From NCBI GenBank assembly GCA_017558945.1, contig JAFYTG010000196.1:1-43782 (forward strand): DNA of 43,782 nucleotides. The letters run 5' to 3'. This document shows, piece after piece, positions 109 through 42,257 of this stretch. Position numbers and translations under genes: made by a program. The notes below the pieces were generated by a model, which saw nothing but the letters and a program-made list of their open reading frames with translations, was not told where the DNA came from and searched no databases. The first letter of the stretch is position 1. Each line of letters begins with the position of its first letter. The DNA comes from Clostridia bacterium (GTDB lineage Bacteria; Bacillota; Clostridia; Oscillospirales; SIG627).

Positions 109-302
109 GTTTGCTCATTTTCCCTTACTATGCTGTTTCATCCCAAAATTGCCCAATAAATGATGTAGAATTGCTGTAGTAAAAATCGCACCCTTTAGTT
201 GATGCAGTCGAACGCCGTCTGCTTTTGTTTTCTAACACGAACAGGCGGACCGTGTTTTCATATGTTGAAGTTGATTATGATGTGAATCGAAGGAGAAACA
301 TC

Positions 303-572
303 ATGAGCATAAGCTTCAAATTCGCAAATCTCATACTTAATGCCCGTCTCGATTCAGGACTCACACAAAGCGAAGTTGCACAGGCCGTATCCGTCAGCAC
401 GCGTTGGATACAGCGCATCGAAGCAGGCGAAAAGCTTCCGGGCACTCTCACAATGCTTAGACTGATTTTATTTTTCGACCTCGATATCGAGGAACTGAGA
501 AAGGAGATAGGGCTTATTGAACCTATATCTGATAACCGCCGAAGGCTGTTCGCAAAGCACTCAGGGAAATAA
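303..572 (+). CDS. XRE-family helix-turn-helix protein
   Basis: ATG at 303 preceded by aaggag. Sequence LTQSEVAQAVSVSTRWIQRIEAGEKLP is a classic HTH_XRE signature. Confidence 0.7.
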   Translation: MSISFKFANLILNARLDSGLTQSEVAQAVSVSTRWIQRIEAGEKLPGTLTMLRLILFFDLDIEELRKEIGLIEPISDNRRRLFAKHSGK

Positions 573-610
573 GCGTGCATTTGGGATAGCTGTTTTTCAC
601 AATTTCAGGA

Positions 611-632
611 AGGTCGCGCACGTGCACGACCT
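611..632. promoter_or_regulatory. 22-bp near-perfect palindrome aggtcg-c-gcacgtgc-a-cgacct (weak terminator or protein-binding site)
   Basis: Seen directly, about 40 nt downstream of the XRE gene, followed by tttct. Confidence 0.3.
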
Positions 633-742
633 TTCTGACCGCCTCGCATTTGTGCTCTCACTGTGCGTGAAATTTACATTTTACCAATTGTCACCACTAC
701 ACATCGCAGATGTACTCGAAGATACCCTCTCCGAGCCTCACT

Positions 743-784
743 AAAAAAACACGGCAGAAACTATGGAACACATAATTTCTGCCG
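743..784 (-). terminator. Terminator downstream of the HNH-like operon
   Basis: Stem cggcagaaa(752-760)/tttctgccg(776-784). The A7 run at 743-749 gives a U-tract on the minus strand. Confidence 0.6.
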
Positions 785-851
785 CATTTCTTTATTCTTC
801 TTTACTGCATTCGGGATAGAGTTCCCATCAAACCGTTTCACTTTGCCAAAG

Positions 852-1346
852 CTAATCCTTCCGTTTCTTTCTATTACGGTTTTGGGTTATAGAATCAGCC
901 CAACGGCAGTTATCTGGCGAATATCCCTTATCTCCATCTATTCGATCAATTGATAAATTATCCGCATAGCCGTGTGAAATAGACCAATTATAGAAGTTTA
1001 CAAAACCAGTCTCTTTATTTAACCAATCATCGCAAATAGCAATACCTCTCTCGCCATAGTTTTTATAGGCTTTACTATGTTTGTTATAACATCTTGTTTT
1101 CATTGCATTATAAATTCTATACAGTCGTGTCTTTATTTGCCCATGCTTATTTTGCTTTTTTAAACACCCACAAGATTGTGTTCTTCCGTTGCGCAAATTA
1201 GATCCTCGCACAATCTTACTTTCACCACAAGAACATTTGCAAAGCCAATGAGGCTCTTTAAACTTTGTAGTTTTGGGACAAGGAGCAGGACCTATAACAG
1301 TCCATCTTCCGAATTTTTGCCCGGTTAAATCAATCATCTTAGGCAT
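852..1346 (-). CDS. HNH-type (homing-like) endonuclease family protein
   Basis: N-terminus MIDLTGQKFGRWTV, then a CxCxCG...SCGC Cys cluster. C-terminal SIDRIDGDKGYSPDNCRWADSITQNRN is an HNH-like motif. The start is ambiguous (1346, 1337 or 1382). Confidence 0.65.
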   Translation of the reverse strand: MPKMIDLTGQKFGRWTVIGPAPCPKTTKFKEPHWLCKCSCGESKIVRGSNLRNGRTQSCGCLKKQNKHGQIKTRLYRIYNAMKTRCYNKHSKAYKNYGERGIAICDDWLNKETGFVNFYNWSISHGYADNLSIDRIDGDKGYSPDNCRWADSITQNRNRKKRKD

Positions 1347-1480
1347 AAGCTCACCCGCCTTTCCTTCTGTTCGACGAGACAAGGATACAGACGTTCCCTC
1401 AGTCGACGCAATATTTCTTCCCTTTCACTTTCTGCAAGAGTTGCCCAAAGGTTCAAAATTTCTCTGTCAGTATTACTCAT
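1334..1480 (-). CDS. 48-aa hypothetical protein, paralog of 33596-33745
   Basis: RBS gggagaggg. Start overlaps the upstream stop as ATGA. Shares TD..IL.LW.TL..E...L..L with the other copy. Below the 60-aa cutoff of the ORF track. Confidence 0.45.
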   Translation of the reverse strand: MSNTDREILNLWATLAESEREEILRRLRERLYPCLVEQKERRVSLCLR

Positions 1481-1584
1481 TTTTCCCTCTCCCTATAAAA
1501 TAGATATAAGACGAGAGCCTTAATGAGCTTCGCAATTCCTAAGCCTATCATAATAAATGACAGCACAAATAAAAATTCTTTCAT
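1477..1584 (-). CDS. 35-aa hydrophobic peptide (MKEFLFVLSFIMIGLGIAKLIKALVLYLFYREREK)
   Basis: RBS aaggagaaa 6 nt upstream of the ATG. One predicted TM segment. Translationally coupled to the next ORF. Paralogous to the peptide at 30795-30944. Confidence 0.45.
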   Translation of the reverse strand: MKEFLFVLSFIMIGLGIAKLIKALVLYLFYREREK

Positions 1585-1593
1585 AATTTCTCC

Positions 1594-1622
1594 TTGACTT
1601 TTCATTATTTTTTTGATATTAT
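1594..1622 (+). promoter_or_regulatory. Sigma-70-like promoter TTGACT-17-TATTAT on the plus strand, antisense to the peptide genes
   Basis: -35 at 1594-1599 and -10 at 1617-1622, with an exact 17-nt spacer. It overlaps the RBS of the 35-aa peptide gene. Confidence 0.5.
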
Positions 1623-1654
1623 CAAGGAGGAGAAGATAACTACTCCTCCTTGAT
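1621..1654. other. 12-bp perfect hairpin atcaaggaggag/ctcctccttgat carrying an SD-like and an anti-SD sequence
   Basis: Seen directly. The 3' arm could instead pair with the true SD (ucaaggag) of the 35-aa peptide ORF on the minus-strand RNA. Confidence 0.5.
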
Positions 1655-1665
1655 TTTGTCGGCTC

Positions 1666-1785
1666 TTAAAGTCTTTTGCTTATTAAAGCAATCAGAATGC
1701 CGACCGTTAGGTCAATCAGTCCACTAATTATCAATTCGGCTAAATTGATTGTGGTTCTGTTTGACCTTTTCTTTTTCTTGCTCAA
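1666..1785 (-). CDS. 39-aa peptide with basic N-terminus and one TM segment (SKKKKRSNRTTINLAELIISGLIDLTVGILIALISKRL), TTG start
   Basis: SD gagaggggg lies 8 nt upstream of the TTG. A consensus promoter sits directly upstream. The ORF contains no ATG. Confidence 0.45.
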   Translation of the reverse strand: MSKKKKRSNRTTINLAELIISGLIDLTVGILIALISKRL

Positions 1786-1816
1786 TTTAATCGCCCCCTC
1801 TCTTGTTTCTGTATAT

Positions 1817-1845
1817 ATTATACACTATTTAGTGTCTTTTGTCAA
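1817..1845 (-). promoter_or_regulatory. Consensus promoter TTGACA-17-TATAAT (minus strand) driving the 39-aa peptide
   Basis: Reverse complement of 1840-1845 is TTGACA and of 1817-1822 is TATAAT. Spacer is 17 nt. Confidence 0.7.
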
Positions 1846-1892
1846 TAGCTTTATGAAACTATTTTAATATTTTTGAAATTTTTATTTTTCTA

Positions 1893-1921
1893 TTGACATT
1901 TAATAATTTACAATGTATAAT
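1893..1921 (+). promoter_or_regulatory. Consensus promoter TTGACA-17-TATAAT (plus strand) driving the XRE gene
   Basis: -35 at 1893-1898 and -10 at 1916-1921. It diverges from the minus-strand promoter about 50 bp away. Confidence 0.7.
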
Positions 1922-1954
1922 AAAATCACAAATCATAAAAGAGGTGATATGCAA

Positions 1955-2173
1955 ATGCCTTTGACTATGGGCGAAAAAATCAAAATTATTTTAAAAAGAA
2001 GAAATATGACTCTTGCTCAGCTCGCAGAAAAAACTGAGCAATCTCGTCAAAATCTCTCAAACAAATTAAGCCGAGATAATTTCACAGAAAAAGAGCTTTA
2101 TTCAATTGCCTCCGCTTTGGACTGCACCTTTGAAGCAAGCTTCACGATGAACGACACAGGCGAAAAAATCTAA
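1955..2173 (+). CDS. XRE-family HTH protein (72 aa)
   Basis: RBS aagaggtg 8 nt upstream of the ATG at 1955. MTLAQLAEKTEQSRQNLSNKLSR is an HTH signature. Confidence 0.7.
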   Translation: MPLTMGEKIKIILKRRNMTLAQLAEKTEQSRQNLSNKLSRDNFTEKELYSIASALDCTFEASFTMNDTGEKI

Positions 2174-2202
2174 TGCAAAAAATATACTTACGTATACAAA
2201 AA

Positions 2203-2229
2203 CGGTAGGAAAGCTCCTACCGTTTTTTT
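2203..2229. terminator. Bidirectional terminator between convergent genes
   Basis: Stem cggtagga/tcctaccg with loop aagc. A-run upstream and T7 downstream. Confidence 0.75.
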
Positions 2230-5200
2230 CTATTGCCTTGTTGGAAAATTGTATTCTCTTTTAGGCAGATTAAATTTTCTCTCGGGGAGATTGTATTTCG
2301 GCTGTGTGCCGCTCTCCGAGGCTTTGCCGTCATTGAAGGCTTGAGCGATTCCCGAGGCATAATCGCCGTAGGGATTATTTTTCACCGAGCTTGAGCCCGT
2401 GACTATCTGCCACAGAGCTGCCTTCTGCTGAACCGTTAGTGATATTTCGTTATCCCCTCCCGGCAAGGCAAAGCCGTAGCTCGTCGGAAACAGACCGTCA
2501 ATTGCTTTCTGGTATTCGGCGGCGGAATAGCTGCCGTTACCGTTCGTATCGTACTCGCTCATATTAAGCTTGAGAGCGGTAAACGCCTTCAAGGGAACGT
2601 CATTATCGTAGCAGAGGTCAAGCCTCTTGCTTTGAGCGTCCTCAGTGACAAGAGCCTTGAGAGCCTCAAGAGTCGTTTCCTCGGGATAGCCTGCCTGAGC
2701 TACCGCATCCCACTTCTGAGCCTGCGACACACTTGTTTTATTGCCGAGAGGCTCAAGGGCCTTCAAACTCAAGGCAAGGTGTACTGCAACCCCCTCCGAA
2801 AGTCCCGTGTCTATAAGCTTATCGTAAGACTCGGAATCATCGCCGATGTATTCCTCGAAGAGCAACACTCGATCGTGTGAGTCAAGAGTGCCATCGAGTA
2901 TGAGCTTCGCCTTATTATGCATTTTATCCGCATTTTTGATATCAAGAATAACGTTGATGGCAGACGGGGAGCTTATACGGTCAAGCGTTGCACGCTCGCT
3001 CTCGGTATTGCTCGCCAGCATATTATAATAAAGTGAAAGCTTTGCCTCATCAGAAACGTTGGAATTACGCAATGCACTTCGTTTATCCTTAGTTTTTTCT
3101 GTCGTTCGTATGGTGTTTATAAGCTCAAGAGCTTCCCTCTCACCTGCGCCGACTGCCTTCATCTCTTCATAAGCACGAGTCTGATCTGAGGTGTAGCTCT
3201 TAAAGCCTCCCTCTACCCAATCCTGAGCCGTAGGAAGAGAGCTTTTGCCGAATATAAGCGCTTTAGCGGCGTTGCCGACACTCTTTGCACCCTCATCTGA
3301 ATAATAAGGATATTGAAGCTTTTCATCTCCTTTGCTGTCGGTTTTATAGCTTCCCCCTTTAGCAAGAGCAATTCCGCCCTTGACTGTTTTTGATATTTGT
3401 CCGCCACCCGTCGGTAAAAACAAGTAAGTTGCAGGATTTTCAAGCTCCTTGGCAATGGACTTGAGACCTCCGTTGCCTATTCTGCTCAGGTCCTGAGGAA
3501 GCCCGTCTATCAGCTCCGACACACTTCCGTACGGCAACGCAGATTCCAACGGGAACCTGCCTCCTCCGAAATATCCGCCGACAAAGGGAAGCTCCTCGAC
3601 GATATTGTCCACGAGATTGCTGACGGTATTTTCATCCCCATCACGTATATCACGTATTGTATCCGCCGCCATTCCGATCGGGTCAAATGCCGCATCGTTT
3701 CCCGTAAGCTCCTTGAACACAAGGTTAAACAAGGCGGCACCGATAAACATTTTAACGTATCCGAATATCAGTCTTCCTATACCCTCGTTTTTTAAGTCTC
3801 GGGGCATATCCTTGAACATATACCCATATTGGTTATTGACCTCAAGCTGAAACGCCGTAAATATCCTTGAAATAAAGTTTTTCGCCTCAAACGCAGTCGG
3901 CATTTCTCCTCGGCTGCGGCTTGCCATAACGCTTGAGCAGAATACGTCGGCGTTGTATATAGCCTGTGCCTCCGACATTCCCTCCTTAATATTGTCGTAA
4001 TACTTACCTCGCCATATCACCTCTGACGATAGCGAATCTATCATTTCCATAGGTATCGAAACACTATCGGACACCTTATCCCATCCGCTTTTATAAAGCT
4101 TTTCGACCTTTTCAAGCCTATTGGTCAAAAATGCAGACTTTTCAGTTAAGCCATCATTTTTAAAGGTGGTCGATATAAAATCGCCGAATGCCTTCAAGGA
4201 GCTTCCGAGCGACACCTCTCCCCAGGACTGCGTAACGGATATGAAATTGGTTAACGCAGAGCGTATATTTCCGCCTATCATATTTCCGCTTACTCGGCTC
4301 GACACGTTATCCATAACAGAATAAAATTTTCTGTTTAAAGCCGTTTCCGTGCTTCTGTCAGAGGTGGATTTTTTCCCTGCAAGCGTATTGGTCTGCTTGC
4401 GAAAATCAATAACAAAGTTATTGAGCGGATTACTCTTGGTCTCCAAAACCTTATCTATCAGAGCCTGAGTCGTTTCCTCGTCGTGCCCCTCGGCTATTAT
4501 TTTGTCAATCTCCTCCTGAGCTCCCTTATCGCTATGCTCATACCTTATACGGTTTTCAAAGGCACGTCGTTTTTGAATATCCTCGATATGATATATCCAA
4601 TCAAGTGCGCCTTGAACGTAGGAATCAAGTCCTTTTGTAAAGCTGTAATCGGTTATATCCGATTTTCTCTCTTTATTGAAGGGTTGATAGCTACGCTCGG
4701 GATTAAAGGTCTCGGTAAGGCCTGCTATATCCGTCGGGATCTCATTACTTTTGATTTTCCAGTTGAAGAGTCTTGCAAACCAACCTTGCTTTTCATCGGT
4801 AAAATGAGGAAAATATCCCTCACGATACGGAATTTCCTTCATACCCTGCTCTCGCAAGGTTTCGTTCAATCTGGCAAAGAGACCGTCATACGTTTCTCTT
4901 GCCATTTTTATTGCACGTTCAACCTTTTTGGTGTCTATTTCGTTCTTATGCTCGTCATAGAACCTGCTCACGTCGTCTTCGGTAAGAGTGGTGTCGGGGT
5001 TATGGCGAAGCTCTCCGAGCATTTGAATATATGCATCCTCCGCCCTGGTTATCTTCATATCCGCATAAGGAGACTTAATACTGTTAGCCTCACGTATAAG
5101 CTGCGCCTCGTGAACGTTATATTTTCCCTGAAGCTCGTCCCATATCGCATCAGCCCTCTCAATATCGTGAGTTCCGTCAGCCTTCCGTATTATATCCCGA

Positions 5201-8200
5201 AGATTACGCCTCAAGGTATTCGTGGAATAGTGAAGCCCCAATTTTTTATCTCTCCAGGTGGAAGAGTCGCCGATGAGCTGCTGCATAAGAAGATCATACT
5301 CCTCACGCTTGCTCATCCGCTGTTCCCTTTGCTTGAACTCGGGAGTACCCATTTTGTCAATACGAGCTTGCACGTCCTCAATGCGCTTATCCAATATGGC
5401 AAGCGAATCATCTCTCAGACGTTCAAGCCTTGCTATGCGGGCTTTTAATTGTGTAGCAGTCTTTGACGTATCATTTCGCTTCTGCGATAATAAAAACTGC
5501 AAACCCGCTATTTCATCATCAAACGAGACCTTTGTATCGTGACGTGATATTCCAAGCTCCTCCAGCTCCTTTTCCAAGCTCTCAAGCTTTTGAAGATTTG
5601 CCCCCTTTACCGTAGCTTGACCTTCTGCGATACTGTCAGCTCGGGCGTCGGGATACATTTCCTCTGCGGTTTTCAGTACGATGGGTTCAACGTCGTCAGC
5701 CGTATCCGCCTCTCCGTTACCCTTATAGTAAAGGTCAACGAGCGGTGTGCTGTATGCACCTATATCGGACTGTTCAACGTTTTTGGGAGAAAGTGAATAT
5801 TTTCCATTGACATTTCCGTCAGGAGATGTTATCATATTTTCAGACATAGAGTTGATGTATGGATCCACCGTAGCATTATTGCTACGACCCATAGAAAAAC
5901 TGATTTTTTCAGTTCTAGACTCTGTGTCTTTTGTTTTTAGCAATTCAAATGCTTTCCCTTCAGGTGATAATACTCGTAGCGAGTGAACTCTACCTTTACC
6001 AAACATTACAGATACAACAATATTTCCCTTTTCGCCATTAAGAATTGCAGGTGCTGCAAATGTTATTGATACCGTTCCTTGTCCTTTGTGATTTTTATGA
6101 CCGGAAATTATTTTTCCTTTTTTTATTACATAAGGCGAAGCAATAGCCGCTGCACGTTCCGGATCTGTTTTTGCATAATTTTCAATTGATGAGATTGCAT
6201 CTTCGTCAAAAAGGATGCTACCCAAGCCTTGTACATCAATCTTGTTTCCGAAAGATTTTTTTAACGTATCTTCAAGAACTTTATAATACGGTCTTTTATC
6301 CTGCTTGCTATAAGTCACGTCTACGACCGGTTGCATTGAATTAACTTCGTCAAGGTGTGCAATTAATTGTTCTTTTAACGTACTGAAATTGTCAGGATCC
6401 CAGTTTATATCTAAGTCACGAACGTCTTTTTGAGTGAGACTATATCTAACCTCCCCCGAATTATTCTTAAGCTTAGAGTTCAAAGCTCTCTCGAGTCTAT
6501 GCTGAGCTGTTAAAAGCTTGCGAGCCTCGGGGGTATTTGCTTTTATAAGAGAAATTACGTGCTTTATTTCGTTCAAAATACGCTGTGCGAGGTTGGGATG
6601 CTTTGCGGCAAGGCTATTGACAAAGCCCTCATCGGAAAAGAGGTATTCTCCGACAAGCTCGGCAGTAAGCTCCTCATTGATATCGGCATTTTTTACGGTT
6701 CTGTACATTCGGGCTACAGCCTTGTGCTTGTCTTCGTAAACACCGATCTGATTTGCGTAACCGATAACAGCCCTTTGTAAGCTGTCGTAATACTTGGAAC
6801 CCTCAAGCACGTGGGTTATTTCATGACCGATAACCGACTGCCACGCCTTGCGGGACTCGGCATTGATGAGCACCGTTTTGCCCGTATACACACCGTTAAC
6901 GAAGCGGTTGCCGACAGAAAAGCCCGATTCCTTGAGCCTTTCATTGTTGACGAACTCAAATTCAACACCCGTTCTTGAGTAAAGCTTTGCGGCAAGGTCT
7001 ACAAGCCGATGAGACGCCTCGGTGTCATTGAGCACACCGCTTGCAATCGCCCTCTCAACGATATATCGCTCCTTACCCTCATATTTTGTCGGGTCATCGG
7101 TGAACGCTCTGTTGGAAGCCGTCTTTTCCCGATATTCCTCTGTGACGTATTCCTCGGCCGTCACAAACGGAAGCGGGTCATTCTGAACAGTGTATGGAAG
7201 CTGTGAAGCTTCGTCCTTTGTGTCCGATGTATCGGGGTTGACAGAACTGTCAGGGTGTGGTATACTAATATTAGTAGCATTGCTGTCAAGAGACGTTTCG
7301 GACGTAAGTTGCGGGGAAGAGTATTCTTCTATGTTCAACAATTGACCTTTGCTACCTTTTTTTATGTACGAGCTTGTTATCCAGATTATCTTGTTGGTGC
7401 TATCCGGAACACATTCAGAAACATATATTGTGTTGTTGCCAACCTTTTTTTCTATGCGAATTTGAGGAGCATAACTCCCATCGCTGTTTTGAAATCTGGT
7501 GGATAAAGATACATTTCCATTTTTATCAAGTACAAACTCACCTGAATCGGCATTTTGTATTGCCCACGGTATTAAAAACTGTGAAGCTTCATCGAACATT
7601 GATTTGTCGGCTTTGCCATTCTCGCCATGACGAATATACGTGTGTGATGCACCTGTACCATCTATCCAGATTTGATAGCCCTCCGAAGAAAATCGCGGGT
7701 TGATGGTTTTCATTAAGCTGTTAACTATTTCTGTATGATTTTTAGAAGCTTCACCTATTTTGTGCTTTCTTTTAGATATAAGTGATTTGTCAAGCATTGA
7801 ATTTACACTATTGATAAAGTTTTTGAATCTTAATCCATTTTCATAATTATCCTTTGATAATTTTACAGTAATAATGCTTCGACCATCTTTTGACATTGTT
7901 TCGACCGTCTCATTTACCGAGGCGGTATTATTGTCATCAAGCTCAACCGACGTTGATTTCAAGGCACCGTTTTCATAGTCCTCAAGGTACAGCTCCGCCA
8001 TACTTTTACCGGACGCTTTCGCACGTGCTTCAAGCTCGTCAAAATATTTATTTTTGCCCGTCCATTCGCTCTGTGCTTTGTTAAAATCAGAGGCGATTTG
8101 AGGAGCGGAAAATACGCTGGACATAGCAGCACCCGAGAGTGCACCTGCAATTCCGTCTATTCCAAGCTCAAGAGCCTTATCCTTTACCGCATTTACCCAA

Positions 8201-9900
8201 GCCTGCGATTCGGTCATGCCTTGAGCCTTATAATTCTTTATTGAGCTTTGCCACTGACTCTTATCACCCGAAACAAGAATATCGGCAAAGGTATTAATAA
8301 GATTGGTGCCGGGCTCTTCCAAGCCCTCGGTAAGTGCGTTTTTGGCAATATAACGGATTCCGCTCTTACTCCAGCTTCCGCCAAATAGAGCATCGAGGCC
8401 TATCTTCTCCATTATTAATTCAGCGGCGGCAGCCACTATACCGAGAGAAAGCGCCTGAGCGTTATTGAGTCCTCTGTCTCGGGCTTCGATAACGGTATCG
8501 CCTGCCACGCTTGTGCTCATAATGGCGAGTGAAGCGGCAGGGTTGCCCAAGGATGCCATAAGAGTAGTTCCGTAGCTTCCGAGACCCATTGCGATGTTAT
8601 AAAGCAGCTTACCTGTATCGTTCATATTCTCAGAAACGGCTTGTGTGGTTGCAGCCGATTCAAAGTTAAGACGGTTGTAGTCTGCATCCTGATTGATTTC
8701 GCCGTTTTTTATAAGGTCTATCACCTGTGTAGGAAACGTTGTTATTTTATTGGGGGCATTAAGAATGCTGATGATTGAGCTGCCGACGGGATGTGCTTTT
8801 GCAAACTCACGCGCTTCCTTTTCAATTTCATCTCTGCGTCTGCGGTACAAGGTGGACTCGCCCGTTTGTGCGATAGCTTTTTCAAGAAATTCTATATACT
8901 CATAAGCTTTTTCGGGACCTTCTGTTGCATATATATAGTTAAAGGTCTTTACTTCATCCTCGGTCATTTCCTCAAAGTGAAAGTTGTTGAATTTACGGTA
9001 TCTGTTATCCTCAAAATTAATGGCCTTGGCATCAGCATTACCGTTTATGTAATCATACAGAATATCGTCGAAGGCATCACCGTCTGAATAGTATTCCGTA
9101 TACTCGCGTCTGCTTACGGGATTATACTTTTTGATTCCGAAGATAGGCGTATCCTGACGGGTAGTTTTATACTCACTTTTTTCTTCAAAATCATCATTGT
9201 TTTTCAGATTGTCATAAGCAAAATATTTACTCCAGGTCCTTTCTTCTTCAAGAAGGGCTTTTTCTTTTTTCAGTGCTTCCAGCTCGGATTGTGCGGATGA
9301 ATTAACTGTGTCGTAGCCTTCGTCTCCTTGGGTATAATATGCTTTTTTTGCGTCGTCCGCACGGTTTGCTTCGATAGATGAAATACGTGAAGTTATTTTT
9401 TTGATATCTTTTTCAACATCCTGCTCGTTCCTTACAGTACTTCTCCACTTTGTGTATTCGGACTCATAGGAGTTAGCACCATCAAAAACGGCATTGTCTG
9501 ACACCTTGGAAAGCTTGTCAAGACCTTGTGCTTCAGCTTTTTTACCGGTAGTTTTCATAAAATCAGCTACTTTTTTCGGTGTATTATAAAGAGCACCTAC
9601 CGTATCGGCAACGCCTTTTCTTTCGGTTTCTGCCCATTTTGAAAACTCGGGAGAATAATAAGGATTTGTTTTCGAGGGCGCAAGACGCTCGTCAATTTGC
9701 TTTGCGCGAGTATCAACGGAAGAAGCTTTGAGCATGGCTTGAGGGTCAAAGCCTTTTACTTCTTTGGGTCTTGCATCAATCGGGGTATATGCTCTAAGGC
9801 GGTCAAGAGCACCTACCACAGTTTTTTTATCTGTGGCAGGTGCAGTATTTGTATTAACGTCAACGGGAGTGTATGATTTTAATTTCTCGAGTGCTGTCAT
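2230..9900 (-). CDS. Giant 2556-aa polyvalent-type protein, probably virion-associated, with a zincin metallopeptidase module and PBECR-like nuclease-fold modules
   Basis: RBS aggagg. HEITH zincin motif at codons 6811-6825. A GASHTYIRHGENG...IWITSSY module near 7250-7880 resembles phage Barnase-EndoU-ColicinE5/D-RelE (PBECR) domains. Gly/Ala-rich hydrophobic segments and long coiled coils are present. An EF-hand-like loop DTNGNGSYSAAE lies near the C-terminus. Confidence 0.6.
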   Translation of the reverse strand: MTALEKLKSYTPVDVNTNTAPATDKKTVVGALDRLRAYTPIDARPKEVKGFDPQAMLKASSVDTRAKQIDERLAPSKTNPYYSPEFSKWAETERKGVADTVGALYNTPKKVADFMKTTGKKAEAQGLDKLSKVSDNAVFDGANSYESEYTKWRSTVRNEQDVEKDIKKITSRISSIEANRADDAKKAYYTQGDEGYDTVNSSAQSELEALKKEKALLEEERTWSKYFAYDNLKNNDDFEEKSEYKTTRQDTPIFGIKKYNPVSRREYTEYYSDGDAFDDILYDYINGNADAKAINFEDNRYRKFNNFHFEEMTEDEVKTFNYIYATEGPEKAYEYIEFLEKAIAQTGESTLYRRRRDEIEKEAREFAKAHPVGSSIISILNAPNKITTFPTQVIDLIKNGEINQDADYNRLNFESAATTQAVSENMNDTGKLLYNIAMGLGSYGTTLMASLGNPAASLAIMSTSVAGDTVIEARDRGLNNAQALSLGIVAAAAELIMEKIGLDALFGGSWSKSGIRYIAKNALTEGLEEPGTNLINTFADILVSGDKSQWQSSIKNYKAQGMTESQAWVNAVKDKALELGIDGIAGALSGAAMSSVFSAPQIASDFNKAQSEWTGKNKYFDELEARAKASGKSMAELYLEDYENGALKSTSVELDDNNTASVNETVETMSKDGRSIITVKLSKDNYENGLRFKNFINSVNSMLDKSLISKRKHKIGEASKNHTEIVNSLMKTINPRFSSEGYQIWIDGTGASHTYIRHGENGKADKSMFDEASQFLIPWAIQNADSGEFVLDKNGNVSLSTRFQNSDGSYAPQIRIEKKVGNNTIYVSECVPDSTNKIIWITSSYIKKGSKGQLLNIEEYSSPQLTSETSLDSNATNISIPHPDSSVNPDTSDTKDEASQLPYTVQNDPLPFVTAEEYVTEEYREKTASNRAFTDDPTKYEGKERYIVERAIASGVLNDTEASHRLVDLAAKLYSRTGVEFEFVNNERLKESGFSVGNRFVNGVYTGKTVLINAESRKAWQSVIGHEITHVLEGSKYYDSLQRAVIGYANQIGVYEDKHKAVARMYRTVKNADINEELTAELVGEYLFSDEGFVNSLAAKHPNLAQRILNEIKHVISLIKANTPEARKLLTAQHRLERALNSKLKNNSGEVRYSLTQKDVRDLDINWDPDNFSTLKEQLIAHLDEVNSMQPVVDVTYSKQDKRPYYKVLEDTLKKSFGNKIDVQGLGSILFDEDAISSIENYAKTDPERAAAIASPYVIKKGKIISGHKNHKGQGTVSITFAAPAILNGEKGNIVVSVMFGKGRVHSLRVLSPEGKAFELLKTKDTESRTEKISFSMGRSNNATVDPYINSMSENMITSPDGNVNGKYSLSPKNVEQSDIGAYSTPLVDLYYKGNGEADTADDVEPIVLKTAEEMYPDARADSIAEGQATVKGANLQKLESLEKELEELGISRHDTKVSFDDEIAGLQFLLSQKRNDTSKTATQLKARIARLERLRDDSLAILDKRIEDVQARIDKMGTPEFKQREQRMSKREEYDLLMQQLIGDSSTWRDKKLGLHYSTNTLRRNLRDIIRKADGTHDIERADAIWDELQGKYNVHEAQLIREANSIKSPYADMKITRAEDAYIQMLGELRHNPDTTLTEDDVSRFYDEHKNEIDTKKVERAIKMARETYDGLFARLNETLREQGMKEIPYREGYFPHFTDEKQGWFARLFNWKIKSNEIPTDIAGLTETFNPERSYQPFNKERKSDITDYSFTKGLDSYVQGALDWIYHIEDIQKRRAFENRIRYEHSDKGAQEEIDKIIAEGHDEETTQALIDKVLETKSNPLNNFVIDFRKQTNTLAGKKSTSDRSTETALNRKFYSVMDNVSSRVSGNMIGGNIRSALTNFISVTQSWGEVSLGSSLKAFGDFISTTFKNDGLTEKSAFLTNRLEKVEKLYKSGWDKVSDSVSIPMEMIDSLSSEVIWRGKYYDNIKEGMSEAQAIYNADVFCSSVMASRSRGEMPTAFEAKNFISRIFTAFQLEVNNQYGYMFKDMPRDLKNEGIGRLIFGYVKMFIGAALFNLVFKELTGNDAAFDPIGMAADTIRDIRDGDENTVSNLVDNIVEELPFVGGYFGGGRFPLESALPYGSVSELIDGLPQDLSRIGNGGLKSIAKELENPATYLFLPTGGGQISKTVKGGIALAKGGSYKTDSKGDEKLQYPYYSDEGAKSVGNAAKALIFGKSSLPTAQDWVEGGFKSYTSDQTRAYEEMKAVGAGEREALELINTIRTTEKTKDKRSALRNSNVSDEAKLSLYYNMLASNTESERATLDRISSPSAINVILDIKNADKMHNKAKLILDGTLDSHDRVLLFEEYIGDDSESYDKLIDTGLSEGVAVHLALSLKALEPLGNKTSVSQAQKWDAVAQAGYPEETTLEALKALVTEDAQSKRLDLCYDNDVPLKAFTALKLNMSEYDTNGNGSYSAAEYQKAIDGLFPTSYGFALPGGDNEISLTVQQKAALWQIVTGSSSVKNNPYGDYASGIAQAFNDGKASESGTQPKYNLPERKFNLPKREYNFPTRQ

Positions 9901-31897: not shown

Positions 31898-31926
31898 TTG
31901 CAATTTTGCGAAAGTTAGTGTATAAT
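31898..31926 (+). promoter_or_regulatory. Repressor promoter TTGCAA-17-TATAAT
   Basis: -35 at 31898-31903 and -10 at 31921-31926. Confidence 0.6.
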
Positions 31927-31950
31927 GTAAAAGTAAAGGGTGATATTTAT

Positions 31951-32286
31951 ATGCATATAGGAGAGAGAATTAAGCTCCGACGAAAAGAATTAGGCATAAG
32001 TGTAGATGATTTGGCTTCGATTTTAGGTAAAGACCGCTCAACCATTTACAGATACGAAAAGGGTGACATAGAGAGTCTGCCGTTGGATATTTTAAATCCA
32101 ATCGCAAAAGCTCTGCGCACCACTCCTGCAAGCCTTATGGGGTGGGAGGAATCAAACACTCCTGCCGTTCCCAGTTCGCCTTCGTCCATAGATAACGAAT
32201 TTCTTCAAATCCTCTCTACCCTCTCCGAAGAAGATAAACAATGGCTCCTTGACCTCATAAAGACTGTAATTGAAAGAAGAAAATAA
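31951..32286 (+). CDS. CI-like XRE-family repressor (111 aa, no peptidase S24 domain visible)
   Basis: GERIKLRRKELGISVDDLASILGKDRSTIYRYEKG. Only plus-strand gene in the switch. ATG at 31951. Confidence 0.75.
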   Translation: MHIGERIKLRRKELGISVDDLASILGKDRSTIYRYEKGDIESLPLDILNPIAKALRTTPASLMGWEESNTPAVPSSPSSIDNEFLQILSTLSEEDKQWLLDLIKTVIERRK

Positions 32287-33998: not shown

Positions 33999-34994
33999 AT
34001 GACACGACGTTCTGACGGTCTCTGGCAGGAGGCTATCACAATCAACGGAAAAAGAAAATACTTCTACGGCAAAACCAAGGCAGAGGTTCTCAAGAAGCTT
34101 AGAGACTACCAGGGTGAGACGGAACAGGGCAGACTGTTCCGAGAGGTTGCTGAGGAATGGTGGGAGGAGCATTCGCAAAAGGTCGTCCCCTCTACGATGA
34201 GCGGATATAACGCGCGCTTTCTGTGTGCGGTTGAATATTTTGACGACAAGAGGATCAAGGACATAACACCGCAGGACGTTACAAAGCTTCTCAAGTCCTT
34301 GCAGGACAAGAAATACTCGCAAAAGGTTATCTCCACACAGCTTAACGTTATAAATATGATTATCAACGTAGCAATAATCAACGGAGATATAACCTACAAT
34401 CCCTGCTCAGCCGTTCAGATTCCGAAGGGACTCCCAAAGAAGAAGCGCGAGCTCCCTACGGATAAAGAATTTGAAATCGTTGAAAACAGCGATTGGCTGT
34501 TTCCGTTCTTTCTCCTTTATACCGGGTGCAGACGCGGTGAGGCTCTCGCCGTTACGTACGAGGATATAGATTGGGAGAAAAAAGTTATTCACATCAATAA
34601 AGCCGTTGGCTTTAAAGGAAATATACCATACATCAAATCAACTAAAACCGAAGCAGGTCACAGAGACGTCGTTCTCCTCGACAAGCTCGCCGCAAGGCTC
34701 GATAGGTCTAAAACAGGACTTATCTTTCCGAACAACAAAGGCGAGCTCTGGCACGATTCCATGGTTCAGAGAAAATGGAAGCAGTGGCAGAGGAGATACA
34801 ACACCTCCGTTACCGCGCATCAGCTAAGACACGGTTACGCTACAATTCTTTTTGAGGCGGGGCTTGAGCCAAAGGATGCACAGTATCTTTTGGGGCACAG
34901 TACAATATCAATGACGCAGGATATTTACACTCATATCAGACAAGCGAGACAGCAAGAATATGCTGTAAAATTGAATGATTTTTTGAACAAATAA
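33999..34994 (+). CDS. int: Tyrosine-type site-specific integrase
   Basis: TGCRRGEALA (catalytic Arg), HQLRHGYAT, LLGHSTISMTQDIYTH (HxxR, H, Y). Adjacent to attR. Confidence 0.9.
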   Translation: MTRRSDGLWQEAITINGKRKYFYGKTKAEVLKKLRDYQGETEQGRLFREVAEEWWEEHSQKVVPSTMSGYNARFLCAVEYFDDKRIKDITPQDVTKLLKSLQDKKYSQKVISTQLNVINMIINVAIINGDITYNPCSAVQIPKGLPKKKRELPTDKEFEIVENSDWLFPFFLLYTGCRRGEALAVTYEDIDWEKKVIHINKAVGFKGNIPYIKSTKTEAGHRDVVLLDKLAARLDRSKTGLIFPNNKGELWHDSMVQRKWKQWQRRYNTSVTAHQLRHGYATILFEAGLEPKDAQYLLGHSTISMTQDIYTHIRQARQQEYAVKLNDFLNK

Positions 34995-35047: not shown

Positions 35048-35073
35048 GGGTTCGAATCCCATCACTCACCCCA
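35048..35073. repeat. attR core (displaced tRNA-His 3' fragment)
   Basis: Exact copy of 28-53. The upstream sequence is not tRNA-like. Confidence 0.9.
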
Positions 35074-39099: not shown

Positions 39100-40569
39100 A
39101 TGAAATCAAAAATAATTATAAATAAAAATTTTACGGTAGGCAAAATAGACGACCGACTGTACGGCTCATTCGTTGAGCATATAGGGCGTGTTGTGTATAA
39201 CGGAATATACGACCCCGAGCACGAAACGGCTGACGATATGGGCTTCAGACAAGATGTGCTTGAAGCGGTCAAGGAGCTTGACGTCCCCATAGTGAGATAT
39301 CCCGGAGGCAATTATCTTTCCGCATATAATTGGGAGGACGGAATCGGAGATAAAGCCCAAAGGCCAACCAAGCTCGATCTTGCATGGAGAAGCATTGAAA
39401 CGAACGAGGTTGGCATAGACGAGTTTCAGGAATGGGCAAAAAGAGCGGGCACGTCGGTTATGATGGCTGTAAATATGGGTACAAGAGGAGCGGATGAAGC
39501 ACGCGAATGCGTTGAATACTGCAACTCGGATACTCCGACCTATTGGGCTGACAAGCGTCGTAAAAACGGATTTGAAAAGCCCTTCGGAATAAAGACATGG
39601 TGTCTCGGAAACGAAATGGGCGGTCTTGGACAAATATGCAGAAAAACTCCCGACGAATACGGACGCCTTGCCGTAGACTGCGCCAAGGTGATGAAGCTTG
39701 TCGACCCGTCCATAGAGCTGATCCTTTGCGGAAGCTCACACCGTGGAATGCCGCGGTTCGGAGAATGGGAGCTCACCGTATTGAATTATGCGTACGAGCT
39801 TGTTGACTATCTCTCGATTCATCAATATTACGGATCGGATGACAATATCGCAGACTTTTTCGCAAAGCCTTGCGATATGGACGATTATATCAAATCCGTT
39901 TTAGCTATGTGTGATTCAATTAAGGCGTATAAAAAATCGGGCAAAAGAATAATGCTGTCCTTTGACGAATGGAATATATTCGGAAAGGGTCTCGTTGCCG
40001 AGCCCAAAGCGGTAGAAAAGGCACCTCACCTTTTTGAATGTGAATATACCTTTGCAGATGCGCTCGTGATAGGTATGATGATGATGACGCTGCAAAATAA
40101 CTGCGACAGAGTAAAAATCGCATGTCTTGCACAGCTTGTGAACGCTATTGCGCCAATAATGACGGAGAACGGTGGAGGGCTTTGGCGACAGACCATATTC
40201 TATCCGTTCAAGCTTATGTCTAAAAACGGCAGAGGAGAAGCCATGAAAACGGCAATATACTGCGATACGTATTCCACCTCGAAGCACTCTGACATTCCGT
40301 ATCTTGCCTCCTCTGTAATTCATAACGAGGAAAAGCGTGAAATTGTAATATTCGCCGTCAATCGTTCACTCGACGAGGATATGGAGCTCGATGCAACAAT
40401 TGAGGATTTCGGAGAATACCGACTCGTTGAGCATATACGCATCTATTCGGATGACCTAAACGCAACAAACTCTATAAACGACGAGAAAATTCATCCGGAA
40501 GCGGTTGATCCGAACAGAGCCACGGTTTTAAAAAAGCACTCCTGGAATATGCTCAGATACAAATATTGA
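39100..40569 (+). CDS. Alpha-L-arabinofuranosidase, GH51 family
   Basis: LYGSFVEHIGRVVYNGIY, RYPGGNYLSAYNWEDGIG, WCLGNEMGG motifs. 489 aa. Confidence 0.8.
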   Translation: MKSKIIINKNFTVGKIDDRLYGSFVEHIGRVVYNGIYDPEHETADDMGFRQDVLEAVKELDVPIVRYPGGNYLSAYNWEDGIGDKAQRPTKLDLAWRSIETNEVGIDEFQEWAKRAGTSVMMAVNMGTRGADEARECVEYCNSDTPTYWADKRRKNGFEKPFGIKTWCLGNEMGGLGQICRKTPDEYGRLAVDCAKVMKLVDPSIELILCGSSHRGMPRFGEWELTVLNYAYELVDYLSIHQYYGSDDNIADFFAKPCDMDDYIKSVLAMCDSIKAYKKSGKRIMLSFDEWNIFGKGLVAEPKAVEKAPHLFECEYTFADALVIGMMMMTLQNNCDRVKIACLAQLVNAIAPIMTENGGGLWRQTIFYPFKLMSKNGRGEAMKTAIYCDTYSTSKHSDIPYLASSVIHNEEKREIVIFAVNRSLDEDMELDATIEDFGEYRLVEHIRIYSDDLNATNSINDEKIHPEAVDPNRATVLKKHSWNMLRYKY

Positions 40570-40684
40570 TAAAAAGCTGTAAAGTATAGCAAGAATTTAC
40601 AAAAAGTATTGAAATAATTACGATTTTATGATATATTGATATTATAATGTTAATATTGATATTAGTTAAAAGGAGTAAAATGCT

Positions 40685-42163
40685 ATGAAAAGAATTTTAT
40701 GTATGCTTCTGGCACTTTTAATGCTTGTGTCGAGCATGACTCTTCTCTTCTCCTGCAAAAAGGACGATGAAAAGAAGCCCGACGGTTCAGGCAACGAGGG
40801 CGGCGCAGTAGTTGACGACGGCTCAATCTTCTATGAAAGAAGCCTCGTTTCCGATGACCTTCCCGAGATTAATTACGGCGGACGCGACTTCCGTGTCGTA
40901 ACTCACATCGAAAGTGAAGTAATCATCAAGGAAGAGGACAGAAATCAGGGAAATCTTATCAAGGATGCAATGTTTTCCCGTAACCAAGCAGTTGAAAACC
41001 GCTTCGGTGTAAACGTAAAGGTAGTATACTCAGGTACTTATTCCGAGGTTACCAGCTACGTTTCCAAGACAGTTCTTGCCGGCTCCGATGAATTTGACCT
41101 CCTTCTCGGTATGGCGGTTGACACGGGTAAGCTCGTTACAAAGAAGCTCTTCCTCAACTGGTATGACATTGAGCATATTAACTTCGACAAGCCCTGGTGG
41201 GCAAGAGCAAACGCTACCGACCTTACCGTAAACGGCAAGTGTCCCATCGCAGTTTCCGACCTCAACTATTCGTCAATTTCCTCCACCTACTGTATGATTT
41301 TCAACAAGAATCTTGCAACCTCCTACGAGCTTGGCGACATTTACGGCACTGTGCTTGACGGCAAGTGGACCTTTGACAAGCTTCAGGAAATGGTTAAGGA
41401 CGTTTACGTTGACGACGGTAACGACAAGCGCGACGAGAATGACTTCTACGGTCTCTCCCACGCTAACGGTTCCTGCGTTAACACTTACCTCTGGTCATTT
41501 GACAACCCCGTATGCGCAAAGGACGAGGAGGGTATTCCTCAGATTGCCATCAAGACCGACAAGATCGACTCCATCGTTACCGACATTTACGATATGTTCT
41601 ACAACACCGACGGTGTATATTTTGACGGAGACAAGATAAACGAGCAATCCATTGCAGGCTCCCTCTTCTACGGAAAGCGTGCAATATTCACCACCTCCTC
41701 GCTCGGTGCTCCCACGGGTGAAAAGCTCCGTGACTTCGAGGATGAATACGGTATCATCCCTTATCCCAAGTATGATGAAAATCAGGCTGAATACAAGACT
41801 ATGGCGGACGGCTATCACACCGTACTCGCAGTGCCCAAGACCGTAAAGGATACCGAGTTCGTAGGTATCATCACCGAGGCTCTTTCGGCAGAAAGCTGGA
41901 AGACCGTAACTCCCACTCTCTATGAGATTGCGCTCAAGACCAGATACCTCCGTGACTCCGAGTCCAAGGAAATTATGGACCTTATCATCGACGGACGTAC
42001 CTTCGACTTTGGCTACATCTTCGACGGATGGCAGGGCTTCTCCTTTATGCTTCAGAAGATGATGGGTAGCGGCAACTCCAACTTCGAGTCCTACTACAAC
42101 ACCCGCTTCAAGTCCGCAAGACTTCACTACAAGACCATAGTTAAGGCGTTTGACAAGCTTTAA
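40685..42163 (+). CDS. Extracellular solute-binding lipoprotein (ABC transporter SBP-like), copy 1
   Basis: Signal peptide with lipobox LLFSCKK. About 490 aa. Follows a glycoside hydrolase gene. Confidence 0.65.
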   Translation: MKRILCMLLALLMLVSSMTLLFSCKKDDEKKPDGSGNEGGAVVDDGSIFYERSLVSDDLPEINYGGRDFRVVTHIESEVIIKEEDRNQGNLIKDAMFSRNQAVENRFGVNVKVVYSGTYSEVTSYVSKTVLAGSDEFDLLLGMAVDTGKLVTKKLFLNWYDIEHINFDKPWWARANATDLTVNGKCPIAVSDLNYSSISSTYCMIFNKNLATSYELGDIYGTVLDGKWTFDKLQEMVKDVYVDDGNDKRDENDFYGLSHANGSCVNTYLWSFDNPVCAKDEEGIPQIAIKTDKIDSIVTDIYDMFYNTDGVYFDGDKINEQSIAGSLFYGKRAIFTTSSLGAPTGEKLRDFEDEYGIIPYPKYDENQAEYKTMADGYHTVLAVPKTVKDTEFVGIITEALSAESWKTVTPTLYEIALKTRYLRDSESKEIMDLIIDGRTFDFGYIFDGWQGFSFMLQKMMGSGNSNFESYYNTRFKSARLHYKTIVKAFDKL

Positions 42164-42169
42164 AATTGC

Positions 42170-42198
42170 AAAAAAAGAGGCTGAAAAGCCTCTTTTTT
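42170..42198. terminator. Terminator between the SBP paralogs (part of the longer palindrome 42163-42210)
   Basis: agaggc-tgaaaa-gcctct with flanking A6/T6, extended by attgcaa/ttgcaat. Confidence 0.75.
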
Positions 42199-42199
42199 G

Positions 42200-42228
42200 T
42201 TGCAATTTTTAAAGAAGTGTGCTAAAAT
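42200..42228 (+). promoter_or_regulatory. Promoter TTGCAA-17-TGcTAAAAT for SBP copy 2
   Basis: -35 at 42200-42205 and -10 at 42223-42228. Confidence 0.5.
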
Positions 42229-42257
42229 GAAAATAGATAAAAAAGGAGTAAAATGCT

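Follow-up and report, generated by a model that had tools for sequence, protein, structure and literature searches.

According to the accessible parts of PMC8309996, the membrane toxins of type I toxin–antitoxin modules are peptides of less than 60 amino acids (aa) with one helix and cationic residues, the latter generally at the C-terminus, a placement that is common but not universal. As type I toxins have very little sequence in common (PMC8309996, same parts), searches for them by sequence fail in Oscillospirales-type gut Clostridia. Clostridial prophages carry convergent type I pairs (PMC7699646, in its available sections), and in the SPbeta prophage of Bacillus subtilis the antisense RNA SR6 controls a pair of toxin genes, yonT and yoyJ, on one polycistronic message (PMC5848175, in its available sections). 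In the latter text SR4, SR5 and SR6 are described as acting on their targets by blocking initiation and forming a substrate for RNase III (PMC5848175, same sections). The locus analyzed here lies at positions 1477–1845 of a 43,782-nucleotide (nt) stretch of DNA, called the window below, from an Oscillospirales Clostridia genome (contig JAFYTG010000196.1), and consists of two small open reading frames (ORFs) and a predicted cis-antisense RNA. Its closest known system is yonT/yoyJ/SR6, to which it is likened by layout.

A preliminary description of the stretch had proposed a single 39-aa membrane peptide opposed by a convergent antisense promoter, after the model of Bacillus prophage type I systems. 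The convergent geometry stood, and a conserved promoter and a covarying terminator were added to it, but the unit is a polycistronic cassette of two peptides and not a single peptide plus RNA; the second peptide gene (1477–1584), the hairpin between the ORFs (1621–1654) and the antisense terminator (1709–1779) had all been missed. The Bacillus frame held only for the closest known system, as the host is a metagenome-assembled genome (MAG) of Oscillospirales Clostridia. Judged by comparison of sequences, the cassette is a candidate type I toxin–antitoxin-like family of Clostridia phages, previously unnamed, and this reading is given an even chance. Confidence in the anatomy, that is in a conserved two-peptide cassette with a well-supported predicted cis-antisense RNA gene, is much higher than in toxin–antitoxin function.

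The two peptide genes and their relatives

The elements of the cassette, with SD standing for Shine-Dalgarno sequence, are as follows.

1845–1817, minus strand: sense promoter TTGACA-17-TATAAT, 12/12 match, predicted start near 1810
1822–1835: palindrome ACACTA-TT-TAGTGT in the sense-promoter spacer, one exact site in the window
1794–1800, minus strand: ORF1 SD GAGGGGG, 8 nt before the TTG start
1666–1785, minus strand: ORF1, 39 aa, TTG start, Lys/Arg-rich N-terminus followed by a hydrophobic helix
1621–1654: GC-rich hairpin with a stem of 12 base pairs (bp), between ORF1 and ORF2
1589–1595, minus strand: ORF2 SD AAGGAGA, 4 nt before the ATG at 1584
1477–1584, minus strand: ORF2, 35 aa, hydrophobic N-terminal helix and charged C-terminal tail
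1594–1622, plus strand: antisense promoter TTGACT-17-(TG)a-TATTAT, 10/12 match, predicted start near 1629
1629–1777, plus strand: predicted cis-antisense RNA of about 145–150 nt with inferred ends, covering the hairpin, the ORF1 stop and ORF1 codons 4 to 39
1709–1779, plus strand: antisense intrinsic terminator, stem-loop 1709–1767 (59 nt, -20.2 kcal/mol) and U-rich tail 1768–1779

The two promoters and the 39-aa ORF with its basic N-terminus and hydrophobic helix were located where the preliminary description had placed them, and a TG stands upstream of the plus-strand -10. Its statement that the plus strand carries no ORF was incorrect, since a 63-aa ORF with a TTG start (1676–1867) and a 25-aa ORF (1650–1727) are present there.

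Relatives were obtained by several routes. A DNA search of 101 related genomes found the cassette in G013 and in two places on one contig of G014, and a profile scan of genome contigs added two further MAG loci. A profile search of 401 genomes of the order gave eight at E ≤ 0.01, with values below 1e-7 only in the window's own genome, G014 and G007; the locus of the last, L018, is a distant version of the cassette. The subfamily alignment found 21 loci in IMG/VR, with 12 distinct cassette sequences. The loci were divided into seven sequence groups: (1) the six window-type loci, namely the window, L003, L010, L004, L013 and L014; (2) L018; (3) L025 and L027; (4) L028; (5) L029; (6) L030–L032; and (7) L034 and L039–L042.

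No relative was found when viral contigs were searched with a narrow ORF1 alignment, when metagenome contigs were searched with the ORF2 alignment, or when GenBank phages were searched by tblastn with ORF1 and with P0029. The blastn search of GenBank phages with positions 1400–2230 gave matches to five Enterococcus phages, which were confined to 86 nt of the AT-rich promoter region (10% of the query, 76.8% identity) and judged not homologous to the cassette; against plasmids the same query gave a single 51-nt match. In G014 the cassette occurs twice on the 60-kb contig C121, at about 1.7 kb (L003) and about 38.4 kb (L010); the two copies have diverged and their contexts differ, one being divergent from a small helix-turn-helix (HTH) gene beside an amidase gene and the other standing behind a cro-like gene opposite a cI-like gene.

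Both peptide genes are under constraint. In the six window-type loci the ratio of nonsynonymous to synonymous substitution (dN/dS, pooled Nei-Gojobori estimates) was 0.160 for ORF1 and 0.155 for ORF2, the lowest of the six frames, while the antisense frames that share wobble positions with them reached 0.275 (opposite ORF1) and 0.321 (opposite ORF2) and the other frames 0.67 to 2.6. On the strength of these ratios and of their good SDs, ORF1 and ORF2 are judged from the alignments to be real genes under purifying selection. Conservation of the peptide at the protein level had been named beforehand as a test that could refute the proposal, and it was found.

ORF1 combines a Lys-rich start with a helix of the pattern GL(I/V)DL(I/V)VG..L.LI.K, in which the motif GL[IV]DL.VG is conserved, and only K-R/W-L follows the helix. 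In L010 and L004 an ATG stands at the position aligned to the TTG start. Nine ORF1 clusters were found among 5.8 billion proteins, and the ORF1 profile matched 120 representatives at 50% identity among 1.84 billion at E ≤ 1e-3 (five at E ≤ 1e-10), almost all of them 36–80 aa long and aligned end to end. The family is thus not small, but it is unnamed in Pfam, NCBIfam and PHROGs. Neither window peptide had a meaningful match in these three collections. The ESM Atlas returned unnamed clusters only, with DUF6408 at 0.84, and a profile search of the PDB gave nothing relevant. No description of the cassette was found in the published literature, nor did any type I system of Oscillospirales-type gut Clostridia turn up there, although one of the searches was too loose to weigh much.

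ORF2 carries conserved Lys residues in its helix (G.AKL.K) and a tail, YREREK in the window, that is K-rich in relatives. Its open frame may also be listed as 42 aa from an ATG at 1605, which lacks an SD; the ATG at 1584 is taken as the start because AAGGAGA precedes it and all relatives begin at the aligned MKEF. ORF2 formed ten clusters in the protein search. An ORF2-like peptide gene follows directly 3' of ORF1 in all seven genomic loci, and in each of the 12 distinct viral cassettes the top match of the ORF2 profile was the ORF just downstream of ORF1; four of these matches were significant (E 1.8e-7 to 3e-6), three marginal (0.012–0.021) and five non-significant (E 1.5). The ORF2-like genes of L032, L034 and L029 had no SD recognisable by eye, and the antisense -35 occupies that spot. 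Both ORF1 and ORF2 are shorter than 60 aa and have one predicted transmembrane helix.

In the six aligned loci both arms of the hairpin between the two genes have changed in ways that keep the stem, and GC-rich inverted repeats were also seen 3' of ORF1 in four viral sequences, by eye and without folding. In the window no U-tract follows the hairpin on the sense strand. The hairpin would serve as the 3' stem-loop of the ORF1 message and as the antisense RNA's 5' end, and on the sense strand its 3' arm is complementary to the ORF2 SD.

Promoters equivalent to the sense promoter stand 5' of ORF1 in L003, L013 and L018. Directly upstream of ORF1 in L004, L010 and L014 no promoter passed the same rule, and the cassette there follows a gene on the same strand. 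The palindrome in the promoter spacer has a chance expectation of 0.91 in the window at up to two mismatches, and no second copy of it was found in the window; the alignment shows a similar inverted repeat in the promoter spacer of L003. It is regarded as a candidate operator to which the product of the divergent HTH gene (1913–2173) might bind.

Antisense promoter and terminator

The region of the window held six promoter-like matches against 3.7 ± 2.0 in shuffled sequences, which is not above chance in such AT-rich DNA, and the case for the antisense promoter therefore rests on its conservation in relatives. The preliminary description had suggested looking for antisense promoters beside similar peptides, and they were found in seven of the seven genomic loci, by the same rule as in the window scan, and in 11 of the 12 distinct viral cassettes. 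In the genomic loci the -35 begins 10–14 nt upstream of the ORF2 start codon. The six window-type loci keep TTGAYT, a spacer of 16–17 nt and TGnTAnnAT, while the spacer sequence varies; in L018 the region is not alignable, yet a perfect TTGACA-17-TATAAT antisense promoter is present. In the 11 viral cassettes the promoter scored 11–12 of 12 and stood at +65 to +82 from the ORF1 stop, against a background of 0.0148 matches of this score per 61 nt in the same loci. The twelfth, L028, has only an extended -10, TGATATAAT, with a poor -35. Judged from these alignments and scans, the antisense promoter is conserved in position across the seven sequence groups.

A predicted terminator follows. When the start of the RNA was set 7 nt after the -10, the distance from there to the first stem followed by a T-run was 131–167 nt in each of the 14 loci examined, which gives RNAs of about 137–173 nt. 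RNAalifold folded the six window-type antisense sequences into the 59-nt stem-loop with the U-rich tail directly after it, at -20 to -25 kcal/mol, and in L018 a similar stem is followed by U7. The z-score of the predicted RNA fold was -4.29 (1629–1778) and that of the sense message -5.46 (1810–1560). The terminator is made of coding sequence: the stem base is formed by pairing of the K-R-S-(T/N)-K codons of ORF1 with its G-L-I-D-L codons, and the tail TTTCTTTTTCTT is the complement of ORF1 Lys codons. For the RNA as a whole no Rfam family was found at the gathering cut-off or at E ≤ 1, and only sub-threshold matches to generic hairpins appeared.

The stem shows covariation. Among 11 sequences representing all seven groups, 88% of the cells were paired, with a consensus helix limited to the outer stem, and compensatory changes occurred in seven of the 14 terminator pairs, altogether in 17 cells. 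The covariation value was 0.355 against a shuffled mean of 0.207, a value that none of 500 shuffles reached, and the slid controls stayed at or below 0.168. Of the 126 cells in the six window-type loci, 123 can pair if the antisense strand is folded and 116 if the sense strand is, and in the 11 sequences the tally of G-U cells was 13 on the antisense strand against two that pair only on the sense strand. Because of these two counts, the antisense RNA is favoured as the selected molecule. Two pairs of the inner stem have changed on both sides, within the Ile/Asn and Glu/Leu codons of INL-x-ELI, and these changes are synonymous in the window-type loci. An antisense RNA gene with a promoter and a terminator of its own, complementary to the ORF1 message, is thus predicted in silico. 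A look for RNA sequencing runs covering positions 600–4600 of the window found none.

From this anatomy a course of action may be sketched. The antisense RNA would pair with the ORF1 message from the 3' hairpin to about codon 4, reaching the ribosome footprint, and would so block ORF1 translation, mark the duplex for RNase III, or both. By taking the 5' arm of the hairpin it would also free the 3' arm, CUCCUUGA, to pair with the ORF2 SD, so that one RNA might hold down both peptides. This pairing follows from the hairpin-arm repeat AATCAAGG, which is conserved at the ORF2 SD. When the RNA-covered part was removed from the folded message, the 3' arm paired with the ORF2 SD in six of six loci, with the start set at either 7 or 9 nt after the -10. 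Folding of the complete message gave the hairpin, with an unpaired ORF2 SD in four of the six. As the repeat also carries the -35, this folding result is not independent of promoter conservation. Should the RNA fall relative to the message, the peptides would insert in the membrane and harm or arrest the cell, and the purpose would be prophage maintenance or the abortion of infection. Glu and Asp are retained within the ORF1 helix and Lys within that of ORF2, and these opposite charges suggest that the two peptides meet in the membrane. The fullest form of the proposal is rather unlikely as a whole: a widespread phage module in which one RNA of about 140 nt would govern two peptides, the ORF1 coding sequence would double as terminator, a hairpin flip would hide the ORF2 ribosome-binding site (RBS), and the oppositely charged peptides might join in one heteromeric membrane lesion, a binary toxin with which temperate phages of gut Clostridia would maintain lysogens or abort competing infections.

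Alternative readings

Several observations weigh against toxin–antitoxin function, or against the evidence used for it. Neither peptide has a proven toxin relative; the Fst_toxin matches seen in four of the eight close ORF1 relatives are partial, covering 14 residues at 18–22 bits against a cut-off of 36. The order of charges in ORF1, with a cationic N-terminus and the helix at the C-terminal end, is the reverse of that usual in type I toxins, and its SD is unpaired in the predicted fold of the message, unlike in many type I toxin messages. The cassettes of L004 and L010 come after a cro-like gene that diverges from a cI-like one, as in an early operon, and in the viral group L030–L042 an HTH gene follows the cassette; such early-operon settings are as compatible with a set of developmental phage genes as with an addiction module. 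The operator-like palindrome in the sense promoter means that the message may be switched off in lysogens. The terminator stem folds also on the sense strand (116 of 126 cells), and the stems of four examined viral loci of groups 6 and 7 are weak, at -8.5 to -9.7 kcal/mol. In the window group the -35 overlaps the ORF2 SD, by 2 nt in the window, and the hairpin-arm repeat, and its conservation could have another cause. The loci are related and amount to seven sequence groups, not to independent cases, and the promoter and terminator rules are of the sigma-70/sigma-A type, not validated for this host.

In phage lambda, OOP is a short antisense RNA with a promoter just downstream of its target gene, and it covers the 3' end of that gene and ends inside it. 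A regulatory RNA of this kind, or like P22 sar, could here tune two non-toxic accessory membrane peptides, for example for superinfection exclusion or host take-over, and no addiction would be involved. Although on the unlikely side, this is a serious rival, because all matches to toxin families are below threshold, the ORF1 SD is exposed in the predicted fold, the sense promoter contains the operator-like palindrome, and in L004 and L010 a cro-like gene immediately precedes the cassette, which is divergent from a cI-like gene. Also the geometry agrees with OOP, and ribbon-helix-helix (RHH) or HTH genes adjoin the cassette in the window, L003, L013, L018, L025, L027, L028 and the L030–L042 group. 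On the other side, the predicted RNA spans nearly the whole of ORF1, and the cassette in the window has a consensus promoter of its own and occupies the prophage's accessory end, at a distance from the lysogeny switch (about 32 kb). Furthermore, both peptides match membrane type I toxins in size and single-helix build, as far as the partial text of PMC8309996 defines these, and the layout of one RNA and two small ORFs has a proven toxin precedent in the available part of PMC5848175.

The antisense promoter might instead mainly serve a neighbouring regulator, as in repressor establishment, or act by transcriptional interference, with the short RNA being incidental. Read-through would indeed enter a gene for a DNA-binding protein in five of the seven genomic loci (the HTH genes of the window, 1913–2173, and of L003, the cI-like genes of L010 and L004, and the RHH gene of L013). 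This is nevertheless improbable, as in every one of the 14 loci examined a conserved, covarying stem with a U-tract comes 131–167 nt after the predicted start, so that most transcripts would stop earlier, the regulator of the window has a perfect promoter of its own, and in L014 the gene upstream of ORF1 is a sense-strand HNH endonuclease. It is about as hard to credit that the plus-strand signals are functionless by-products of AT-rich sequence, of the ORF2 SD and of the folding of the sense message. The promoter-like matches in the window do not exceed those in shuffles, the -35 overlaps the ORF2 SD, the stem folds on the sense strand too, and poly-Lys codons automatically yield a U-tract. 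Against this, matches of 11–12 of 12 recur at one position in mutually unalignable groups (L018 and four of the five viral groups) over a background of only 0.0148 per 61 nt, with L028 keeping only the extended -10; promoter, stem and U-tract always combine to 137–173 nt; and the G-U pairs favour the antisense strand, 13 to 2.

A protein-coding role of the 63-aa plus-strand ORF, driven by the plus-strand promoter, is very improbable. Its frame is free of stops opposite the 34-codon core of ORF1 in six of the six window-type loci, a listed ORF spans the frame in all seven genomic loci, and its dN/dS of 0.275 is fairly low. But the frame shares its wobble positions with ORF1, in which dN/dS is lower (0.160), and a stop would need a Tyr, His or Gln codon, none of which occurs in the window-type ORF1s. 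The equivalent frame opposite ORF2 is also stop-free, which points to a generic effect. The lengths and ends of the ORF vary from 47 to 120 aa, running through the ORF1 SD and promoter, and outside the hairpin it lacks an SD. It was therefore rejected as a gene and regarded as a by-product of the ORF1 codons.

Should the peptides prove toxic and be held in check by the RNA, the toxin–antitoxin reading would add a new type I family in phages of Oscillospirales-type gut Clostridia. Whatever its function, the cassette offers a coding sequence in which a peptide and the terminator of its antisense regulator are selected together, a selection made visible by compensatory changes that are synonymous within the window-type loci. 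It also provides a search pattern for metagenomic phages: a Lys-rich start, a GL[IV]DL.VG helix, a GC hairpin, an antisense promoter and a second peptide.

Genomic setting and comparison with known systems

The window is the start of a contig of an incomplete MAG (68% complete). Exact direct repeats of 26 bp stand at 28–53 and 35048–35073, the left copy within the 3' end of a tRNA and the right copy just past the integrase gene, and they are likely attachment (att) sites at the two ends of a prophage of about 35 kb. Rfam recognised the 3' part of the tRNA at 1–50, while ARAGORN found no tRNA in the window because the contig end cuts it. Between the repeats there are also genes for the small and large terminase subunits, a P22/SU10-type portal and adaptor, and an amidase; cellular genes of an ordinary kind begin at 35762. 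The repeats enclose the cassette, which is thereby placed inside the prophage. It is an accessory module near the left prophage end, 1.4–1.8 kb from that end, past the virion and lysis genes, at the opposite end to the integrase and far from the lysogeny switch. The neighbouring and marker genes are listed below.

1334–1480, minus strand: 48-aa ORF, its ATG overlapping the ORF2 stop (ATGA)
852–1382, minus strand: HNH endonuclease gene closing the operon, with an uncertain start codon; phrog_374 at E 2e-70, homologue in L003
1893–1921, plus strand: perfect promoter of the divergent HTH gene
1913–2173, plus strand: small divergent HTH gene of Cro/CI type, HTH_26 at E 3.5e-10
2198–2227, plus strand: strong terminator after the divergent HTH gene
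31906–32286: cI-type HTH gene, between the direct repeats
33999–34994: integrase gene, between the direct repeats

The operon thus reads, on one strand, sense promoter, ORF1, hairpin, ORF2, 48-aa ORF and HNH gene. The 48-aa ORF is probably coupled translationally to ORF2; it has a homologue of 52 aa in L003 and a weak sub-threshold likeness to the C-terminal parts of repressors (DicA, E 0.003). An HNH gene adjoins the cassette in three loci, on the 3' side in the window (852–1382) and in L003 (721–1389) and on the 5' side in L014 (2471–2989), and the cassette may travel together with a homing-type endonuclease. A second small regulator, a 115-aa XRE-type HTH gene (225–572, plus strand), stands at this prophage end too, with the left att repeat on one side and the HNH gene on the other. 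On the other side, between the amidase and virion genes and the cassette, there is an ORF of 2556 aa (2230–9900, minus strand) with no Pfam match and an HExxH-like stretch (HEITH), which may encode a giant virion or ejection protein. Among the host genes beyond the prophage are three tandem genes of 489–492 aa (39100–43730, plus strand), the first of which has an alpha-L-arabinofuranosidase C-terminal domain.

With lambda OOP the cassette shares the position of the promoter, but the target of OOP is the message of the cII regulator and not of a membrane peptide, and only the 3' end of the target is covered.

Fst/Ldr toxins are, like ORF1, single-helix peptides of Firmicutes, and the sub-threshold matches of the four ORF1 relatives to them extend over the C-terminal 14 residues (VG....L..KWL). 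In the Fst par system short repeats bring the antisense RNA to the toxin initiation region, which resembles the hairpin-arm repeat at the ORF2 SD. ORF1 differs in its long cationic N-terminus and in having no C-terminal tail, and the antisense RNA is here fully cis-overlapping, while in Fst only the terminator and repeats are shared. The accessible text of PMC8309996 gives as typical of the Fst family a conserved APxxxG / PxxxGC motif with a helix-bending proline. In 13 sequences of the ORF1 family the aligned helix region contained no proline and read (I/V)DLxVG. The ORF1 of the window had no Fst match at E ≤ 10, none of 111 further family members had one at E ≤ 0.02, and none was found in the window's genome. 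Membership of ORF1 in Fst/Ldr (PF13955) was rejected on the sub-threshold scores and the absent proline motif.

Type I systems of Clostridioides difficile prophages are nearer in host. CD0977.1–RCd11 and its relatives belong to the same class, Clostridia, are convergent, lie in prophages and have been proposed to take part in prophage maintenance (PMC7699646, available sections). Their toxins have 34–47 aa, sigma-A promoters and AGGAGG ribosome-binding sites in that partial text (PMC7699646). The hydrophobic N-terminus and Lys-rich tail of these toxins (PMC7699646, available sections) recur in ORF2, which also has the C-terminal cationic placement usual in type I toxins; ORF1 has the opposite polarity. 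The modules of C. difficile have a single toxin each, and here the RNA-covered ORF is the one of opposite polarity.

Also bsrG/SR4 and txpA/RatA, as far as the partial sources describe them, pair a toxin message with a convergent antisense RNA, lie in a prophage and encode a small single-helix peptide. They differ in having one toxin per RNA and an overlap at the 3' ends only. BsrG is a hydrophobic peptide of 38 aa (PMC8309996, accessible parts); ORF1 differs from it by the cationic N-terminus and ends right after the helix. SR4 is described as causing a structural change that hides the toxin RBS (PMC5848175, available sections), a step of the same kind as that suggested here for ORF2.

The system closest in layout, yonT/yoyJ/SR6, is likewise prophage-borne and has two small tandem ORFs on a polycistronic message from one promoter, with one cis-antisense RNA arising from between or over the ORFs; this RNA is 100 nt long there, in the sections available, and predicted at about 145 nt here. 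The predicted RNA overlaps the 3' end of ORF1, as in SR6, and most of its codons. SR6 overlaps the 3' end of yonT by about 65 bp and the 5' region of yoyJ by 30–40 bp (PMC5848175, available sections), whereas the RNA here spans nearly all of ORF1 and has no overlap with ORF2: it is predicted to start near 1629, some 45 nt upstream of the ORF2 start codon in the sense direction, and the ORF2 SD would be reachable only through an 8-nt complementary arm or a hairpin switch. The hosts, Bacillus and Clostridia, differ, and toxicity and RNA are proven for yonT/yoyJ/SR6, while here the toxicity is proposed and the RNA predicted from sequence. If the prediction is true, the cassette would be the second example after SR6 of one antitoxin RNA for two toxin ORFs.

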